Positions 2,322 to 13,250 of a stretch of DNA of 64,000 bases are shown in pieces. Each line of letters begins with the position of its first letter. Position 1 is the first letter of the stretch. Made by a program: the position numbers and the translations under genes. Source of the DNA: Escherichia coli (GTDB taxonomy: Bacteria; Pseudomonadota; Gammaproteobacteria; Enterobacterales; Enterobacteriaceae); assembly GCF_041886205.1 (NCBI RefSeq), contig NZ_CP169029.1; one strand, given 5' to 3'. A model generated the notes under the pieces. The model did not search any database. It was not told where the DNA came from and saw only the letters and a list, made by a program, of their open reading frames with translations.

Positions 2322-4370
2322 ATGAACATGTTTTTTAGGCTTACCGCGTTAGCTGGCCTGCTTGCAATAGCAGGCCAGACCTTCGCTGTAGAAGATATCA
2401 CGCGTGCTGATCAAATTCCGGTATTAAAGGAAGAGACGCAGCATGCGACGGTAAGTGAGCGCGTAACGTCGCGCTTCACCCGTTCTCATTATCGCCAGTT
2501 CGACCTCGATCAGGCATTTTCGGCCAAAATCTTTGACCGCTACCTGAATCTGCTCGATTACAGCCACAATGTGCTGCTGGCAAGCGATGTTGAACAGTTC
2601 GCGAAAAAGAAAACCGAGTTAGGCGATGAATTGCGTTCAGGCAAACTCGACGTTTTCTACGATCTCTACAATCTGGCGCAAAAGCGCCGTTTTGAACGTT
2701 ACCAGTACGCTTTGTCGGTACTGGAAAAGCCGATGGATTTCACCGGCAACGACACTTATAACCTTGACCGCAGCAAAGCGCCCTGGCCGAAAAACGAGGC
2801 TGAGTTGAACGCGCTGTGGGACAGTAAAGTCAAATTCGACGAGTTAAGCCTGAAGCTGGCAGGAAAAACGGATAAAGAAATTCGTGAAACCCTGACACGC
2901 CGCTACAAATTTGCCATTCGTCGTCTGGCGCAAACCAACAGCGAAGATGTTTTCTCGCTGGCAATGACGGCGTTTGCGCGTGAAATCGACCCGCATACCA
3001 ACTATCTTTCCCCGCGTAATACCGAACAGTTCAACACTGAAATGAGTTTGTCGCTGGAAGGTATTGGCGCAGTGCTGCAAATGGATGATGACTACACCGT
3101 TATCAATTCGATGGTGGCAGGTGGTCCGGCAGCGAAGAGTAAAGCTATCAGCGTTGGTGACAAAATTGTCGGTGTTGGTCAAACAGGCAAGCCGATGGTT
3201 GACGTGATTGGCTGGCGTCTTGATGATGTGGTTGCCTTAATTAAAGGGCCGAAGGGCAGTAAAGTTCGTCTGGAAATTTTACCTGCTGGTAAAGGGACCA
3301 AGACCCGCACTGTAACATTGACCCGTGAACGTATTCGTCTCGAAGACCGCGCGGTTAAAATGTCGGTGAAGACCGTCGGTAAAGAGAAAGTCGGCGTGCT
3401 GGATATTCCGGGCTTCTATGTGGGTTTGACAGACGATGTCAAAGTTCAACTGCAGAAACTGGAAAAACAGAATGTCAGCAGTGTGATCATCGACCTGCGT
3501 AGCAATGGCGGTGGGGCGTTGACCGAAGCGGTATCGCTCTCCGGTCTGTTTATTCCTGCGGGTCCCATTGTTCAGGTCCGCGATAACAACGGCAAGGTTC
3601 GTGAAGACAGCGATACCGACGGGCAGGTGTTCTTTAAAGGCCCGCTGGTGGTACTGGTTGACCGTTTCAGTGCTTCGGCTTCAGAAATCTTTGCCGCGGC
3701 AATGCAGGATTACGGTCGTGCGCTGGTTGTTGGTGAACCGACGTTTGGTAAAGGCACCGTTCAGCAATACCGTTCATTGAACCGTATTTACGATCAGATG
3801 TTACGTCCTGAATGGCCAGCGCTGGGTTCTGTGCAGTACACGATCCAGAAATTCTATCGCGTTAACGGCGGCAGTACGCAACGTAAAGGCGTAACGCCAG
3901 ACATCATCATGCCGACGGGTAATGAAGAAACGGAAACGGGTGAGAAATTCGAAGATAACGCGCTGCCGTGGGATAGCATTGATGCCGCGACTTATGTGAA
4001 ATCAGGCGATTTAACGGCCTTTGGGCCGGAGCTGCTGAAGGAACATAATGCGCGTATCGCGAAAGATCCTGAGTTCCAGAACATCATGAAGGATATCGCG
4101 CGCTTCAACGCTATGAAGGACAAGCGCAATATCGTTTCTCTGAACTACGCTGTGCGTGAGAAAGAGAATAATGAAGATGATGCGACGCGTCTGGCGCGTT
4201 TGAACGAACGCTTTAAACGCGAAGGTAAACCGGAGTTGAAGAAGCTGGATGATCTACCGAAAGATTACCAGGAGCCGGATCCTTATCTGGATGAGACGGT
4301 GAATATCGCACTCGATCTGGCGAAGCTTGAAAAAGCCAGACCCGCGGAACAACCCGCTCCCGTCAAGTAA
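2322..4370 (+). CDS. prc: tail-specific periplasmic protease Prc (Tsp)
   Basis: ORF track 2274..4370; signal peptide MNMFFRLTALAGLLAIAGQTFA begins at internal ATG about 2322; PDZ and S41 peptidase regions recognised. Confidence 0.9.
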   Translation: MNMFFRLTALAGLLAIAGQTFAVEDITRADQIPVLKEETQHATVSERVTSRFTRSHYRQFDLDQAFSAKIFDRYLNLLDYSHNVLLASDVEQFAKKKTELGDELRSGKLDVFYDLYNLAQKRRFERYQYALSVLEKPMDFTGNDTYNLDRSKAPWPKNEAELNALWDSKVKFDELSLKLAGKTDKEIRETLTRRYKFAIRRLAQTNSEDVFSLAMTAFAREIDPHTNYLSPRNTEQFNTEMSLSLEGIGAVLQMDDDYTVINSMVAGGPAAKSKAISVGDKIVGVGQTGKPMVDVIGWRLDDVVALIKGPKGSKVRLEILPAGKGTKTRTVTLTRERIRLEDRAVKMSVKTVGKEKVGVLDIPGFYVGLTDDVKVQLQKLEKQNVSSVIIDLRSNGGGALTEAVSLSGLFIPAGPIVQVRDNNGKVREDSDTDGQVFFKGPLVVLVDRFSASASEIFAAAMQDYGRALVVGEPTFGKGTVQQYRSLNRIYDQMLRPEWPALGSVQYTIQKFYRVNGGSTQRKGVTPDIIMPTGNEETETGEKFEDNALPWDSIDAATYVKSGDLTAFGPELLKEHNARIAKDPEFQNIMKDIARFNAMKDKRNIVSLNYAVREKENNEDDATRLARLNERFKREGKPELKKLDDLPKDYQEPDPYLDETVNIALDLAKLEKARPAEQPAPVK

Positions 4371-7038: not shown

Positions 7039-7830
7039 ATGGCTAACGCAGATCTGGATAAACAGCCTGATTCTGTATCTTCCGTGCTAAAAGTTTTTGG
7101 CATTTTGCAGGCGCTGGGTGAAGAGCGCGAAATAGGGATAACCGAGCTGTCGCAGCGCGTCATGATGTCAAAAAGCACCGTTTATCGCTTTTTACAGACC
7201 ATGAAAACCTTAGGTTATGTGGCGCAGGAAGGGGAGTCGGAGAAATATTCCCTGACCCTGAAATTGTTTGAACTGGGCGCTCGCGCGTTACAAAACGTCG
7301 ATTTAATTCGTAGCGCAGATATCCAGATGCGTGAGATCTCCCGCCTGACCAAAGAAACTATCCACCTCGGCGCACTGGACGAAGACAGTATTGTTTACAT
7401 TCACAAAATTGACTCTATGTACAATTTGCGCATGTATTCACGGATTGGGCGTCGTAATCCGCTGTACAGCACCGCGATTGGTAAGGTACTGCTGGCATGG
7501 CGCGATCGCGATGAAGTGAAGCAAATTCTTGAGGGCGTGGAGTATAAACGCAGTACCGAGCGGACCATCACCAGTACAGAAGCGTTATTACCCGTTCTGG
7601 ACCAGGTGCGCGAGCAGGGGTATGGCGAAGATAACGAAGAGCAGGAAGAAGGGCTGCGATGCATTGCGGTACCGGTATTTGATCGCTTTGGCGTGGTCAT
7701 TGCCGGTTTGAGCATCTCCTTCCCGACGTTGCGTTTCTCTGAAGAGCGTTTACAGGAATATGTCGCAATGTTGCATACCGCAGCGCGCAAAATTTCTGCC
7801 CAAATGGGTTATCACGACTATCCGTTCTGA
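7039..7830 (+). CDS. kdgR: IclR-family transcriptional repressor KdgR
   Basis: ORF track 263 aa; N-terminal HTH and IclR effector domain recognised. Confidence 0.9.
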   Translation: MANADLDKQPDSVSSVLKVFGILQALGEEREIGITELSQRVMMSKSTVYRFLQTMKTLGYVAQEGESEKYSLTLKLFELGARALQNVDLIRSADIQMREISRLTKETIHLGALDEDSIVYIHKIDSMYNLRMYSRIGRRNPLYSTAIGKVLLAWRDRDEVKQILEGVEYKRSTERTITSTEALLPVLDQVREQGYGEDNEEQEEGLRCIAVPVFDRFGVVIAGLSISFPTLRFSEERLQEYVAMLHTAARKISAQMGYHDYPF

Positions 7831-7837
7831 TGAGAGT

Positions 7838-7876
7838 AAGAACCTGTCGGAATATCAAACAGACAGGTTCTTTATT
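7838..7876. terminator. terminator between kdgR and yobH
   Basis: gaacctgtc...gacaggttc hairpin followed by tttattt. Confidence 0.5.
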
Positions 7877-7972
7877 TAGCATGAGAAAAATAAAGTTGAA
7901 GGTGCGTTATATTAAACGCGCTTGCTATAAGAATATTTTACTCATGAGTGAGAATCTGGTTATTTATTACCC

Positions 7973-8212
7973 TTAACCATTATCGACCACGATATTGCTT
8001 TTACGTAACAGTGGGCAATCTGTTATCCCCAAGAAACCACTTTTAGTGTGCAAGTATTGTACCGTGCTGGTGCCTCTGGCAGTCAGATAGGTACATTGCA
8101 AACCTAATCCTGCGGCATTCTCTTTGCTTCCAATCAAAACGCCATATCCGCTGAGTAATAATCCTATCCATACCAGTGCTATCAGCATAACTGTGCGAAT
8201 GATGAATCGCAT
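7973..8212 (-). CDS. yobH: small secreted/membrane protein YobH
   Basis: ORF track 79 aa with hydrophobic N-terminus; position between kdgR and mgrB as in K-12. Confidence 0.7.
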   Translation of the reverse strand: MRFIIRTVMLIALVWIGLLLSGYGVLIGSKENAAGLGLQCTYLTARGTSTVQYLHTKSGFLGITDCPLLRKSNIVVDNG

Positions 8213-8370
8213 TACAACCTCTTCTCTTTTTATGTTCGCTTAATCGTAGCGGCAATATGCGCTGAAGCAAGCTACTCATTCCGAAAAAGCACGAATATCG
8301 ACATAGTTAGGCGCTGTTTAACTAACGCATGCTAGTTTAATGACATAAGGTAGGTGAAGCGGAGATTGGA

Positions 8371-8514
8371 GTGAAAAAGTTTCGATGGGTCGTTCTGGTT
8401 GTCGTGGTGTTGGCTTGCTTGCTGCTTTGGGCGCAGGTATTCAACATGATGTGCGATCAGGATGTACAATTTTTCAGCGGAATTTGTGCCATTAACCAGT
8501 TTATCCCGTGGTGA
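8371..8514 (+). CDS. mgrB: PhoQ-inhibiting small membrane protein MgrB (47 aa)
   Basis: Hand-translated GTG-start [50 protein letters not shown]; below ORF-track size cutoff; coordinates approximate. Confidence 0.75.
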
Positions 8515-8588
8515 TATCATTTTTTCAGCACTAGATTTTCTTCCTCTCCAGCAGTGGTAGAATAGCGCCTCTACTCAGAGGTGGTGAA

Positions 8589-8876
8589 ATGAACGAAGTT
8601 GTAAATTCAGGCGTGATGAACATTGCGTCTTTGGTTGTATCGGTGGTGGTTCTTCTTATCGGGCTCATCTTGTGGTTTTTTATCAATCGTGCCAGTTCTC
8701 GGACTAACGAACAGATTGAACTGCTTGAGGCGTTGCTGGATCAGCAAAAACGTCAAAATGCACTGTTACGTCGTTTGTGCGAAGCAAACGAACCTGAGAA
8801 AGCAGATAAAAAGACCGTTGAGAGTCAAAAATCGGTTGAAGACGAAGATATTATTCGTCTGGTCGCCGAACGATAA
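8589..8876 (+). CDS. yebO: small membrane protein YebO
   Basis: ORF track 95 aa with single N-terminal TM helix; conserved position. Confidence 0.75.
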   Translation: MNEVVNSGVMNIASLVVSVVVLLIGLILWFFINRASSRTNEQIELLEALLDQQKRQNALLRRLCEANEPEKADKKTVESQKSVEDEDIIRLVAER

Positions 8877-8888
8877 TCCTTCCTCAAT

Positions 8889-8925
8889 CTTGAGTAACCC
8901 CGTCGTTGAAGGGTTACTCAATTCA
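8889..8925 (+). terminator. intrinsic terminator after yebO
   Basis: gagtaaccc-cgtcgttgaa-gggttactc hairpin just after yebO stop. Confidence 0.5.
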
Positions 8926-9544
8926 TCCTGATTATACGCACTGCCATGGTGCAACTGCTTCAAATTAAAACTCTGGTCTGACTTCAAATAATTATCATAT
9001 TATTTATTTGCGTAACGGGATATCAGAAAAAGATATTTTCCTCATTAATTTATTAGGATGTTTACATCGGATTTGTGATTAAGCGTGGTATTATTTATTA
9101 GCGAAACGTTTCTCTCTTGATTTTTTGCTCATTCATCAATTTTTCTTATTTTAAATTTTCAATCCCTTTGGGGATTGACTTCTCTTTAGGGTAATTGATA
9201 GCCGTTAACTGACTGTTTTATGAGAAAAAGTGATATAACTTTTTATTCATTGCATAGCAAAAAATGTGATATTGCACGCACTATGTAATAACTTCTCCCA
9301 CTGGCCTGGAACAACTGAACTTATTGAACTATGTTAGAAACTACGCCAGTTTAAGTATCTGCCTGAACTGGCAAGGTTAAGCACAATGATATATCGGCGC
9401 GTATTCCGTTGCATAAGTGTGCAAAAAAAGTGGAAGACGTATCGAGATTTGTGCGTCTGATCGAGACATGTTTAAAAATGGCTTGCCATAATTAACGTTG
9501 TATGTGATAACAGATTTCGGGTTAAACGAGGTACAGTTCTGTTT

Positions 9545-9688
9545 ATGTGTGGCATTTTCAGTAAAGAAGTCCTGAGTAAACACGTTGACGTTGAATACCG
9601 CTTCTCTGCCGAGCCTTATATTGGTGCCTCATGCAGTAATGTGTCAGTTTTATCTATGTTATGCCTGCGGGCGAAGAAAACAATCTAA
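9545..9688 (+). CDS. yobF: small protein YobF (47 aa), co-transcribed with cspC
   Basis: Hand-translated [47 protein letters not shown]; immediately upstream of cspC; coordinates approximate. Confidence 0.7.
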
Positions 9689-9700
9689 GGAATTTTTCAA

Positions 9701-9910
9701 ATGGCAAAGATTAAAGGTCAGGTTAAGTGGTTCAATGAGTCTAAAGGTTTTGGCTTCATTACTCCGGCTGATGGCAGCAAAGACGTGTTCGTACACTTCT
9801 CCGCTATCCAGGGTAATGGCTTCAAAACTCTGGCTGAAGGTCAGAACGTTGAGTTCGAAATTCAGGACGGCCAGAAAGGTCCGGCAGCTGTTAACGTAAC
9901 AGCTATCTGA
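9701..9910 (+). CDS. cspC: cold-shock-like protein CspC
   Basis: ORF track 69 aa; CSD with RNP motifs KGFGFI and VFVHF. Confidence 0.95.
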
Positions 9911-9955
9911 TCGAATCCACTGATCTGAAGTGTGAATACGCTTCAATCTCGCTAT

Positions 9956-9982
9956 AAAGCCTCGTCGAATGCGAGGCTTTTT
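9956..9982 (+). terminator. intrinsic terminator after cspC
   Basis: aagcctcg-tcgaatg-cgaggcttttt hairpin plus T-run. Confidence 0.55.
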
Positions 9983-10075
9983 ACTATGCTTTATCTTCGC
10001 TCCTGGCGTTCGGATATTTGCCCGCCGCGTGATTCGCGTTACACTTGCGGCCTTTAGTATCCTGCCGGAGTTGTC

Positions 10076-10885
10076 ATGTCTTTTTCCTGTCCACTTTGCC
10101 ATCAGCCTCTTTCGCGTGAAAAAAACAGCTATATCTGTCCCCAGCGACATCAGTTTGATATGGCGAAAGAAGGGTATGTCAATCTGCTGCCCGTTCAGCA
10201 TAAACGGTCTCGTGATCCGGGCGACAGCGCGGAAATGATGCAAGCACGCCGCGCATTCTTAGATGCCGGACATTATCAGCCGCTGCGTGATGCAATTGTC
10301 GCCCAACTGAGGGAACGGCTTGATGATAAGGCCACGGCGGTGCTAGATATTGGCTGTGGTGAAGGGTATTACACACACGCATTTGCCGATGCGTTGCCCG
10401 AAATCACCACGTTTGGTCTGGATGTTTCGAAGGTAGCGATAAAAGCGGCGGCGAAACGCTATCCGCAGGTCACTTTTTGTGTCGCTTCCAGCCACCGTTT
10501 GCCGTTTTCCGATACCAGTATGGACGCCATAATACGTATTTACGCGCCGTGTAAAGCAGAAGAATTAGCACGAGTAGTGAAGCCCGGCGGCTGGGTCATT
10601 ACTGCCACGCCGGGACCGCGACATTTGATGGAGCTGAAGGGGCTGATTTACAATGAAGTACATCTTCATGCACCTCATGCAGAACAACTGGAAGGTTTTA
10701 CATTACAGCAGAGTGCGGAGTTGTGTTATCCGATGCGTCTTCGCGGTGATGAAGCCGTCGCATTATTGCAGATGACGCCGTTTGCCTGGCGTGCGAAGCC
10801 AGAAGTCTGGCAAACACTGGCAGCAAAAGAAGTGTTCGACTGCCAGACGGACTTTAATATTCACCTCTGGCAGCGTTCTTATTAA
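10076..10885 (+). CDS. rlmA: 23S rRNA m1G745 methyltransferase RlmA
   Basis: ORF track 269 aa; N-terminal Cys4 zinc-finger (CPLC...CPQRH) and SAM-binding motif LDIGCGEG. Confidence 0.9.
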
Positions 10886-11448
10886 CCGTGGAAGTGCGTC
10901 CAGAGGATCTGGACGCCGATGCCGATCAGTACCAGCCCGCCGAGAATTTCCGCTTTTTTCCCAATAATTGAGCCGATAAAGCGACCAACCATCATCCCTA
11001 ATGTTGACATAATCAAGGTTGCACAACCAATGGCCAATGCGGTCGCGATAATGTTGACCTGCAGGAAAGCAAGACCAACACCCACAGCCATGGCATCCAG
11101 GCTGGTGGCAATCGCGGTGGTTACCAGTAGCCAGAAACCGTGTCGACGGCGCGGCTCTTCATCTTCATCATCTGCGCCACGAAAACCCTCAATAATCATT
11201 CGCCCGCCGAGGAATATCAGCAGCACAAACGCAATCCAGTGGTTCCATTCAAGGACAAACCGGCTGGCTAACATGCCCATTCCCCAGCCGATCAGCGGCG
11301 TCAGGGTTTCGACGGCACCAAAAATAAGGCCGGTTCGCAATGCTTCAGAAAATTTCGGTTTATGGAGGGTGGCACCTTTACCGATTGATGCAGCAAATGC
11401 ATCCATCGACATACCAAACGCAAGAAGAACAGTAGCAGTGATATTCAT
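10882..11448 (-). CDS. mntP: manganese efflux pump MntP
   Basis: ORF track 10882..11502; start moved to ATG giving 188 aa ([21 protein letters not shown]...); hydrophobic, duplicated DUF204-like halves. Confidence 0.85.
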
Positions 11449-11454
11449 GACAAT

Positions 11455-11685
11455 GTCCTGACCGGGGTATCCATAAAACACATCATCGCCCCCAGCAAAC
11501 ATGCATACATGAACAACAAGCCGCGATGGTTTTCGCGTTCATGCAGGCATAGCGATTGATGTGCATATGGTCTCGCCTGACTGAAAGTATTCAGTCCGTA
11601 CGTGCCACGTTTTGCAACGAGTATGTTGACACGTACATTTCCGGAATCTGGAAATCGGCTACTCCCCAAATGAGGGCGCAACCTT
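11455..11685 (-). promoter_or_regulatory. yybP-ykoY-type Mn(II) riboswitch in the mntP 5' leader
   Basis: Minus-strand leader contains GGGGAGUAGCCGAUUUCC near its 5' end, matching the conserved yybP-ykoY core; long structured leader before mntP ATG; boundaries approximate. Confidence 0.55.
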
Positions 11686-11810
11686 AACATATTTTGAGAA
11701 TATAAAACAACTGTTGGAATATATTATTTCATTGCTTTATTGATAACGATTTTCATTTGGATTTATATATCAATGAAACGTTAAAATAAATAACAAATAA
11801 GGGAAGAGGT

Positions 11811-11870
11811 AATATAGCCTAAGCTATGTCTGATTATTAAAAATACACTAAACATAGCTTTGGCTAAATT
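11811..11870. promoter_or_regulatory. two MntR-box-like palindromic half-site pairs upstream of the mntP promoter
   Basis: aaTATAGCctaaGCTATGTct and AAACATAGCtttgGCTAaat resemble the MntR operator remembered as AAACATAGC-N4-GCTATGTTT; not verified. Confidence 0.3.
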
Positions 11871-11876
11871 CATAAC

Positions 11877-12335
11877 TTATTGAGTTGAAACGAGAAGCTT
11901 ATAAATTTTTTCCAGATCGTCGATATTTCGAACGCGGATTAACAGCCGACGCTGTTCTAATTGCATCACCAACACGCCATCTTCCGACAAGTTCATCGCT
12001 TTGATTCGGCTATATTCAATCCAGACATTGGCGAAGAAAAAACCTTTTTGTTTAAAGATGATCTTCGGAACGCGGATCCAGAATATATAAAAACCCATCA
12101 GAGCCAGTGCGCTTAATAACCATGTCGTTATTAACGCACCATGATTCGTGACGTTGTTATAGATAAGAATGACAATCAATCCGACGAAGATAACGCTATC
12201 GATGCGACCACGCCGGAGCAAAGGAATTGCCAGCAGGGTGGGGCCGTTACGGCGGGGCATGATGAACTGATCGTAGATCGCGAAGGCCAGGAGTGCGGCG
12301 ATGAAAAGAATCAGTATCAGGTCCGTGATTGTCAT
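11877..12335 (-). CDS. yobD: DUF986 inner-membrane protein YobD
   Basis: ORF track 152 aa, hydrophobic; conserved position downstream of manZ. Confidence 0.8.
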
Positions 12336-12345
12336 TAATCCTCCA

Positions 12346-12376
12346 GATAAAAAAACGGGGCCAAAAGGCCCCGGTA
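12346..12376 (-). terminator. intrinsic terminator after manZ
   Basis: Minus strand cggggcc-tttt-ggccccg followed by ttttttt between manZ stop and yobD start. Confidence 0.5.
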
Positions 12377-12389
12377 GTGTACAACAGTC

Positions 12390-13250
12390 TTACAGTCCCA
12401 GCAGGCCGCAAGCGTAACCAGCGATACCGATGACGAAGAAACCAACGATGATCCACAGCGGGTTAACTTTTTTGCGCAGCAGCCACATACAAGCAAAGGT
12501 CAGCAGCAGTGGTACCAGGCCTGGCATTAACTGGTCCAGAATAGTCTGGACAGTGGTAACGTGTTCTTTGCCCGTCTGGTCAGTAATGCGAGAGACAACC
12601 AGCGGGATGTTGACATGCGTCCACTTGTTAACCAATGCCCCCATGACAAACAGGCCGAGGATAGACGCCCCTTCCGTCAGTTTTTGTAGGAAGCCACCAC
12701 CCATATCTTTAACGATATCGATACCTTTGGAGTAACCATACGCTACGCCGTAGTAACGGGTTGCCAGACGCACCAGGTTAAACAGGATGAAGAACAGCAG
12801 CGGACCTAACAGGCTGCCGCTCATCGCGATACCAGCACCCAGCGCTGCAAATACAGGACGTACGGTTCCCCAGAAGATCGGGTCGCCTACACCAGCCAGC
12901 GGCCCCATCAAACCGACTTTGATACCGTTGATAGCACCGTCATCGATCTCTGCGCCATTAGCACGCTGTTCTTCCAGCGCCAGGGTTACGCCGAGAATCG
13001 GTGCAGCCACGAACGGCTGGGTGTTAAAGAACTCCAGGTGACGGCGAATAGCTTGTTTACGAGCTTCGTTGTTCTCAGGGTAGAGGCGACGAATTGCCGG
13101 TACCATAGAGAAGCAGAAACCCAGTGCCTGCATACGTTCGAAGTTCCATGAACCCTGGAAGAGGTTAGAACGCAGGAATACGCCACGAATATCACTTTGA
13201 GTGAGTTTTTTCTCGGTGGTAGTTTGAGTTGTATCAACCATTTCGCTCAC
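12390..13250 (-). CDS. manZ: PTS mannose transporter subunit IID
   Basis: ORF track 286 aa; recognised ManZ sequence. Confidence 0.9.
   Translation of the reverse strand: MSEMVDTTQTTTEKKLTQSDIRGVFLRSNLFQGSWNFERMQALGFCFSMVPAIRRLYPENNEARKQAIRRHLEFFNTQPFVAAPILGVTLALEEQRANGAEIDDGAINGIKVGLMGPLAGVGDPIFWGTVRPVFAALGAGIAMSGSLLGPLLFFILFNLVRLATRYYGVAYGYSKGIDIVKDMGGGFLQKLTEGASILGLFVMGALVNKWTHVNIPLVVSRITDQTGKEHVTTVQTILDQLMPGLVPLLLTFACMWLLRKKVNPLWIIVGFFVIGIAGYACGLLGL

Follow-up and report, generated by a model that had tools for sequence, protein, structure and literature searches.

The long AT-rich spacer between yebO and yobF-cspC in Escherichia coli: probably a two-promoter control region with adjoining non-conserved DNA

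CspC is a global RNA chaperone that has been reported to affect RpoS, the activation of PhoP in Salmonella and the use of succinate, and adaptive IS insertions have repeatedly hit the yobF-cspC locus. The spacer upstream of this operon is mostly documented already, with two promoters, a CRP site, H-NS binding and RpoD peaks on record. Kim et al. 2012 (PLoS Genet) list two yobF transcription start sites (TSSs) within it in their Table S1, and Shimada et al. 2014 describe a multi-promoter '670 bp spacer' that holds several RpoD-holoenzyme peaks and is marked as H-NS-bound. A later paper, citing databases, gives the promoters of the operon as yobFp1, yobFp2 and cspCp8. A close parallel is the mngB-cydA spacer (847 bp), which is likewise co-directional, longer than 600 bp, AT-rich, provided with several RNA polymerase peaks and of the H-NS-bound type; it has been cited alongside the yebO-yobF spacer, and the two differ in that cydAB has five mapped starts, whereas the yebO-yobF spacer has two. 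Class I CRP-dependent promoters, the ribose operator rbsO and the cspA thermoregulator are the other described systems with which parts of the locus can be compared.

The window analysed here is a stretch of 64,000 nucleotides from E. coli (contig NZ_CP169029.1), in which the neighbourhood of interest contains kdgR (7039-7830, plus strand), yobH (7973-8212, minus strand), mgrB (8371-8514, plus strand), yebO (8589-8876, plus strand) and then, all on the plus strand, yobF (9545-9688), cspC (9701-9910) and rlmA (10076-10885). A preliminary description had identified yebO, yobF and cspC, correctly, and had drawn attention to 8926-9544 as an unusually long AT-rich non-coding stretch. The spacer is real: the last base of yebO is 8876 and the first of yobF is 9545, leaving 668 non-coding bases (8877-9544) with a GC content of 35% (31% for 8926-9300), compared to 50% for the window. 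On a crude map built from ORFs of at least 100 aa, this gap is among the three largest in the 64 kb, for which the median gap is 81 bp. The statement that the interval has no ORF of at least 60 aa holds for ORFs lying fully within 8926-9544; two minus-strand ORFs cross its edges, at 8766-8987 (73 aa) and 9377-9583 (68 aa), and ORFs of 20-28 aa are numerous in the spacer. The start chosen for the interval, 8926, falls just 3' of the yebO terminator hairpin (8890-8921, plus strand; TTGAGTAACCC / GGGTTACTCAA), an 11 bp stem with a folding energy of -15.5 kcal/mol and z = -3.19, which none of 200 shuffles equalled.

The window is E. coli DNA that over this stretch differs from MG1655 by 7 SNPs and one 1-bp indel (99% identity), and the spacer sequence is found in 5,421 of 5,426 complete E. 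coli genomes at 95-100% identity. The MG1655 RefSeq record has zero features annotated between yebO and yobF, and no annotated feature lies under the spacer in 14 E. coli records sampled across the identity ranking. An origin of the spacer from IS1 was considered and rejected; where the top-ranking BLAST hits carry IS1, it lies at the 3' end of yobF rather than in the spacer.

The explanation that we favor, with a probability of roughly 0.8, is that the spacer consists of the transcriptional control region of yobF-cspC plus upstream non-conserved AT-rich DNA. About 450 bp (9097-9544) forms a conserved region with CRP, sigma-S and H-NS inputs, within which two promoters of the sigma-70/sigma-S type point towards yobF: the proximal promoter P1 gives rise to a 26-nt leader whose Shine-Dalgarno sequence (SD) is reportedly targeted by OxyS, and the distal promoter P2 to a 202-nt leader. 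Binding to the spacer, in vitro or in vivo, has been recorded for the RpoD, RpoS and RpoN holoenzymes and for H-NS. The remaining 170-220 bp, adjoining yebO, would be without sequence-specific function, a variable junction that is probably coated by H-NS.

How does the spacer look in related bacteria? Eighty Enterobacteriaceae loci were gathered via YebO, and yebO, yobF and cspC were located in each; 69 of the spacers were aligned with MAFFT, and identity was computed against the 65 non-Escherichia loci. A long non-coding region (441-744 bp) precedes yobF in all loci. The alignment of the 69 loci contains five conserved blocks, B1 to B5, all within 9097-9544, and published TSS maps place starts at 9343 and 9519. 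The promoter blocks, together with B1, B2 and B4, stand at near-fixed distances from yobF across the Enterobacteriaceae. The part nearest yebO is of a different kind, with no conservation of 8877-9056 outside Escherichia (identity 0.08-0.29, gap-rich), and 8926-9096 is lineage-specific AT-rich filler with an identity to other genera of 0.08-0.39, many gaps and a GC content of 29-33%. A short TTTGTGAT motif at 9072-9079 is one that E. coli has in common with Salmonella and Citrobacter.

Block B2, at about 9245-9283, has an identity of 0.48-0.56 and consists of an inverted repeat of the form tGCATaa..atGCA on the left and the CRP site on the right. Block B4 (9409-9424) reads TTGCATAAGTGTGCAA, with the consensus cGCATAAnTGTGCAg in the alignment, and is centered at -102.5 from P1, within the P2 leader. 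The left part of B2 and B4 have in common an inverted repeat of the GCATAAnTnTGCA type, and one further regulator probably binds both, to judge from the shared motif. The cross-genus footprint map, blocks B1, B2 and B4 and the rbsO-like site described below are the additions of the present analysis.

The proximal promoter P1 and its short leader make up block B5 (9447-9544, plus strand), which is near-invariant across loci and contains ATTTGTGCG..GATCGAGACA as well as the A/T-rich TTTAAAAATGG. The -35 element TTGCCA is at 9483-9488 and the extended -10 element TGtGATAAC at 9503-9511, with the upstream TG at 9503-9504 and GATAAC at 9506-9511. Transcription starts at G9519, 7 nt past GATAAC, and the resulting leader of 26 nt carries the yobF SD, GAGG (9528-9531), ahead of the ATG at 9545. 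The MG1655 coordinates were mapped onto the window, and the map was checked. Kim et al. 2012 give this start as 1905641 (old coordinates), with 249 reads and a 26-nt 5'UTR, and tagRNA-seq starts at MG1655 1907615-8 fall on window positions 9518-9521 and support it. A sigma-S ChIP-seq study has a peak over P1 and an identical TSS, and Shimada 2014 gave TTGCCA-17-GATAAC for the yebO-yobF spacer. For the small RNAs OxyS and CyaR, a target in the yobF leader close to the SD has been reported.

The distal promoter P2 (9307-9343, plus strand), which rests on a mapped TSS and on conservation, coincides with block B3 (about 9305-9340), in which CTGGA and TTGAGCTATGGTAAAAAA are almost invariant. Its -35 element TGGAAC (9307-9312) is separated by a 17-nt spacer from the -10 element TATGTT (9330-9335), which ends 7 nt before the TSS at A9343, and the leader of 202 nt (9343-9544) runs across P1. 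In the data of Kim et al. 2012 this start is 1905817 (old coordinates), with 107 reads, a 202-nt 5'UTR and an upstream 51-mer that matches. The operon in Salmonella 4/74 has its published TSS at 1893683, and Tn5 insertions lying 172-181 nt further downstream were still assigned to the 5'UTR, which only a long leader of the P2 type fits.

Both promoters have sigma-70-type hexamers, 16-18 bp apart and about 7 nt before a mapped 5' end. Their elements are conserved in the orthologous loci, B5 with an identity of 0.86-0.99 and the P2 -10 element at a near-fixed position. In nearly all of the 69 loci the P2 -10 block lies at -212 to -224 from the ATG, and from this near-constant distance we conclude that the two-promoter layout is ancestral. 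The names yobFp1 and yobFp2 and the '670 bp spacer' (Shimada et al. 2014) all refer to this locus, with TSSs at 9519 and 9343, and for the promoters themselves there is no difference from these descriptions. The only starts in the spacer in Table S1 of Kim et al. 2012 are those of P1 and P2. A generic promoter and terminator scan was uninformative, finding 3 sites as against 3.4 expected in shuffles and missing the real P2.

The CRP site lies upstream of P2, at 9265-9280, with the halves TGTGA (9265-9269) and ACGCA (9276-9280) on the plus strand around the six bases TATTGC. Its center, 9272.5, is at -70.5 from the P2 TSS. Compared to TGTGA-N6-TCACA it matches at 8 of 10 half-site positions, and its protection comes from published Footprint-seq: Table 1 of the Footprint-seq preprint (2026) lists the CRP site agTGCGTgcaataTCACAttt, centered at 1907867, with an estimated Kd of 8.7 nM and yobF as the gene. 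That preprint, which reports in vitro work, describes the yobF site as a high-affinity CRP site that had previously been undescribed, and a CRP genomic SELEX study has yobF among its predicted targets. Class I CRP-dependent promoters have CRP near -61.5 or -71.5, and the site at P2 is likewise placed, at -70.5; unlike in such promoters, the downstream half-site, on the P2 side, is weak and varies across genera, being poorly conserved in the alignment outside Escherichia. P2 is probably a CRP-activated class I promoter.

RNA polymerase and nucleoid proteins also meet on this DNA. A SELEX peak of the RpoS holoenzyme maps to about 9392, and one of RpoN maps to about 9508, onto P1, where its authors read the binding as repressive. 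The preliminary description had suggested nucleoid-protein binding sites, and in the literature this expectation finds support, with H-NS binding, several RpoD-holoenzyme peaks, a footprinted CRP site, and sigma-S and RpoN peaks from SELEX or ChIP. In an in-vitro run-off array the opposite strand of the spacer was also transcribed (probe IG1905616_1906284-f). This opposite-strand signal is not accounted for by the control-region model.

Farther upstream lies the most distal block, B1 (9097-9160), with an identity of 0.76 for 9097-9116 and 0.52-0.56 for 9117-9156. It begins with the sequence AGCGAAACGTTTCTCT at 9100-9115 (MG1655 1,908,022-1,908,037), which matches the rbsO core AGCGAAACGTTTCGCT at 15 of 16 positions, with 1 mismatch. 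The ribose operator GTCAGCGAAACGTTTCGCTGA was confirmed upstream of rbsD in MG1655, and a crystallography preprint uses this sequence as rbsO. The spacer site has the palindromic form AGCGAAAC|GTTTCGCT, and on that footing it is a putative RbsR operator. By simple counting, about 0.05-0.1 such 15/16 matches are expected per E. coli genome. The site is kept in 62 of the 69 loci with 1-4 mismatches, at -384 to -468 from the yobF ATG; its left half-site and central CG are invariant in those 62 loci, and the right half has 2-4 mismatches in many genera. It is absent in Klebsiella, Raoultella, Intestinirhabdus and the locus L021 (labelled Enterobacter pulveris). Among the papers that could be searched there is no report of RbsR binding in the yebO-yobF spacer, and the rbsO-like site in B1 appears to be unreported in them.

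Outside Escherichia, the rbsO-like site is followed in B1 by a 17-bp palindrome of the TGCCTCA-N3-TGAGGCA type and by a direct repeat, (C)TGTCAT-N4-(C)TTTCAT, and then by TATTTTGGTGCA; in Escherichia this right half of the block has partly decayed. The right half partly resembles a Pho box (CTGTCAT-N4-CTGTCAT), a CreB site (TTCAC-N6-TTCAC), an NtrC site (TGCACCA-N3-TGGTGCA) and a KdgR half-site, resemblances that we treat as leads only. Downstream of the NtrC-like palindromes, the orthologous loci contain no conserved GG-N10-GC element of the kind that would mark a sigma-54 promoter of the form TGGCAC-N5-TTGCA. A comparison of B1 with the rbsD promoter by eye revealed no homology beyond the operator.

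We infer that B1 may be a distal regulatory module about 235 bp upstream of P2, headed by an RbsR-type operator. If the site were a genuine RbsR operator, how could it act? At the ribose operon, rbsO sits between the rbsD promoter and its SD, whereas from the spacer site it is some 235 bp downstream to the closest start that has been mapped; Kim et al. 2012 have no mapped TSS within 200 bp of it, and the distance of B1 from P1 and P2 is too great for direct action by a simple dimeric LacI-type repressor. Perhaps the block is a conserved composite operator with a genuine RbsR site, which would couple ribose or nucleoside status to CspC expression, a proposal that we put forward tentatively and hold to be rather doubtful. 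One route would be a third promoter, cryptic and induced by ribose, with its start near 9101; another would be an altered occupancy of H-NS and RNA polymerase upstream of P2. For the former route, an extended -10-like element, TGgTATTAT (9086-9094, plus strand), lies 5 nt upstream of the rbsO-like site and is conceivable as a hypothetical repressed promoter P3; orthologues mostly have an AT-rich TATTwww at this position, and the -35 is not conserved. A Salmonella screen for faster growth on succinate recovered both rbsR and cspC, and its authors ascribed the effect of RbsR to RpoS only. If true, the RbsR reading of B1 would directly tie these two hits together.

Other explanations would place an element of a different kind within the spacer. 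Could the leader itself be a long structured cis-regulatory element for yobF-cspC, resembling a thermosensor or riboswitch? YobF is reportedly induced by heat at the post-transcriptional level. The long leader that the preliminary description had supposed does exist, as the mapped 202-nt P2 leader and in Salmonella too, but its supposed structure is not supported: the fold of the P2 leader is ordinary (z = -1.17, single-sequence fold against shuffles), and in 66 orthologues the 5'-terminal 60 nt of the leader adopt unrelated structures, at a mean z of -0.6. The sequence between the promoter blocks is variable, and such conservation as the leader has falls on P1 elements. The yobF-cspC mRNA does match the Rfam model of the cspA thermoregulator (RF01766) from 9525 on, with 132.9 bits against a gathering score of 78. 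That match, however, lies almost wholly outside the interval, taking in only its last 20 nt; the score comes mainly from the coding part of cspC, and the 5' part of the model, which overlaps the yobF ORF, aligns poorly. We therefore consider a structured leader of this kind unlikely. Another such element would be a small RNA of about 80-90 nt, repressed by RbsR, that would start near 9101, inside the rbsO-like site, from the cryptic promoter at 9086-9094 and end at a hairpin with a U-rich tail at 9159-9178. The -10-like element and the operator are indeed arranged as in repressor-controlled promoters, a terminator-like site was found by the terminator scan at 9159-9178 (plus strand; an 8-bp hairpin TCAATCCC-TTTG-GGGATTGA followed by CTTCTCTTT), 9100-9192 folds better than shuffles (z = -2.76), and the published TSS maps would have missed a repressed promoter, since the cells were presumably grown without ribose. 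Against this, Kim et al. 2012 report no TSS near 9101, the cryptic promoter has no conserved -35, and the good fold of 9100-9192 is partly self-pairing of the operator palindrome. The hairpin has a z of -1.5; non-compensatory changes disrupt its stem in two E. coli alleles, RIVM_C036569 and Esc21, and E. albertii, the Escherichia lineage L002 and all other genera lack it. As a conserved intrinsic terminator or small RNA 3' end it was thus rejected, the stem and U-rich tail being present in this strain and lost elsewhere. The run quoted in the preliminary description, at about 9141-9179, contains this hairpin. An Rfam 15 scan (7500-12500, E up to 10) placed no family at its gathering score in 8926-9520, the only match there being CRISPR-DR25 with 22.1 bits, compared to a gathering score of 36, at the hairpin (9156-9182). 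The unannotated small RNA that had been suggested is therefore not supported, with no Rfam hit, no TSS beyond P1 and P2, and a hairpin that is not conserved, and the version repressed by RbsR seems to us very improbable. The suggested small ORF fared no better. The many ORFs of 20-28 aa, in a neighborhood rich in small proteins (MgrB, YobH, YebO, YobF), might be taken to hide a small protein-coding gene, but clustering of ORFs of at least 12 aa from the 69 spacers yielded none that is conserved in start, frame and length. The ORF clusters simply track the conserved DNA blocks, with starts, frames and lengths that shift between loci, and the minus-strand ORFs at the position of 9377-9583 range from 14 to 82 aa across genera, so that this ORF has no conserved counterpart. 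Since the current MG1655 RefSeq record also annotates nothing there, a hidden gene has hardly any probability left.

A last alternative concerns the filler rather than the control region: 8926-9096 might be what decay or deletion has left of a gene that the Escherichia lineage once had. The loci fall into two classes. In one, yebO is followed directly by a spacer of 441-744 bp, as in Escherichia, Salmonella, Citrobacter, Klebsiella, Raoultella and part of the E. cloacae complex; in the other, which includes Lelliottia, Kosakonia, Buttiauxella, Leclercia, Cedecea, Phytobacter and others, yebO is followed by a gene for a 331-aa MBL-fold hydrolase (Pfam Lactamase_B_2) and then by a spacer of 444-552 bp. 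In all, more than 30 loci, drawn from many genera, have the hydrolase gene at the junction of yebO with the control region of yobF. In E. cloacae and E. hormaechei the gene is absent, but its last ~64 bp and the downstream DNA are kept at the junction (blastn identity of 72-78% over about 150 bp, E down to 2e-29), and from this remnant it follows that deletion at the yebO junction has occurred. No comparable remnant was found in E. coli by blastn or tblastn, in contrast to the E. cloacae complex: blastn with queries from E. coli, Salmonella and C. koseri did not hit the hydrolase loci, with K. pneumoniae it found only short matches (21-33 bp), and in none of these four did tblastn reveal any similarity to the hydrolase. 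On balance a lost gene is a possible origin of the filler, though one that we think more doubtful than not. Such a loss is compatible with the control-region explanation, and the difference in gene content may reflect either loss or gain.

The main value of the control-region explanation is negative: an AT-rich, ORF-free gap is explained, and no candidate new element emerges from it. Given that the gap is accounted for by two promoters, CRP, H-NS and filler, it should not be carried as a new element. The conservation map, for its part, leads to a testable hypothesis, namely that an RbsR-type operator and two further footprints lie upstream of cspC. In view of the global role of CspC, knowledge of how the expression of yobF-cspC is wired is useful.

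The junction downstream of yebO, ahead of the yobF control region, varies in gene content among the comparison loci. A gene for an MBL-fold hydrolase of 331-341 aa occupies this same junction in many Enterobacteriaceae, for example at positions 3308-4303 of locus L008 (Pfam Lactamase_B_2, E = 8e-42); the loci that carry it are L008, L011, L014, L016-L018, L022, L028 and L030, plus others. It is absent from the junction in Escherichia, Salmonella, Citrobacter and Klebsiella. In Enterobacter cloacae and E. hormaechei (L058 and L069), only the final ~64 bp of the gene is left, and this remnant is a deletion scar. One of the loci, L010 (CACSKA010000003.1), is labelled Chryseobacterium sp. 18061, with a yebO-yobF-cspC arrangement typical of Enterobacteriaceae and a CspC that is 100% identical; this assembly probably bears the wrong name or contains contaminating DNA.

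The Rfam model of the cspA thermoregulator (RF01766) matches the plus strand of the window at 9525-9985 with 132.9 bits (gathering score 78). The match spans both yobF and cspC, and the yobF reading frame therefore falls in the mRNA segment that corresponds, by a weak alignment, to the long 5'UTR of cspA. The 202-nt leader from the distal yobF promoter P2 contains, ~45-55 nt from its start (9388-9397), the short motif GA(A/T)ATATA(T/A)C, which recurs at this distance in Escherichia, Salmonella, Citrobacter and Intestinirhabdus. In the ribose operon, a second operator-like sequence, GTAAAACGTTTCGAGG, lies upstream of rbsD at L082:445-460, ~75 bp upstream of the canonical RbsR operator rbsO (L082:524-537).

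Transcription of the strand opposite yobF-cspC has been reported from an in-vitro run-off array, where it was better supported by sigma-70 than by sigma-S holoenzyme (ratio 2.4). The signal covers the spacer between yebO and yobF (MG1655 probe IG1905616_1906284-f, minus strand) as well as cspC antisense (c2230). The in-vivo TSS list of Kim et al. 2012 (Table S1) includes no antisense start here.

A manganese riboswitch (yybP-ykoY) match upstream of mntP, on the minus strand at 11579-11675, scores 41.6 bits, slightly below the gathering score of 45, and presumably corresponds to the mntP riboswitch already known, in a form whose variable region is shortened. Upstream of the mntP leader, within a stretch of 25% GC, both strands give weak and near-identical matches to a model of a microRNA hairpin (11800-11881), which point to a long inverted repeat.

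IS1 copies occur at the yebO-yobF-cspC locus of some E. coli strains. In E. coli O121 (L087:1501-2390, NZ_CP119441.1), IS1 breaks the spacer at ~9062 in window numbering, and the spacer is followed by yoaB in place of yobF-cspC; this layout indicates an IS1-mediated rearrangement or deletion. In at least 15 natural isolates of E. coli, an IS1 lies inside the 3' end of yobF, directly 5' of cspC, the insertion point having been read in one of them (L083:1046-1978, NZ_CP147109.1) and the rest being BLAST hits H2-H15. The cspC gene downstream of IS1 in L083 carries the label cspE. Ageing laboratory colonies have a published adaptive hotspot for insertions of this same kind.
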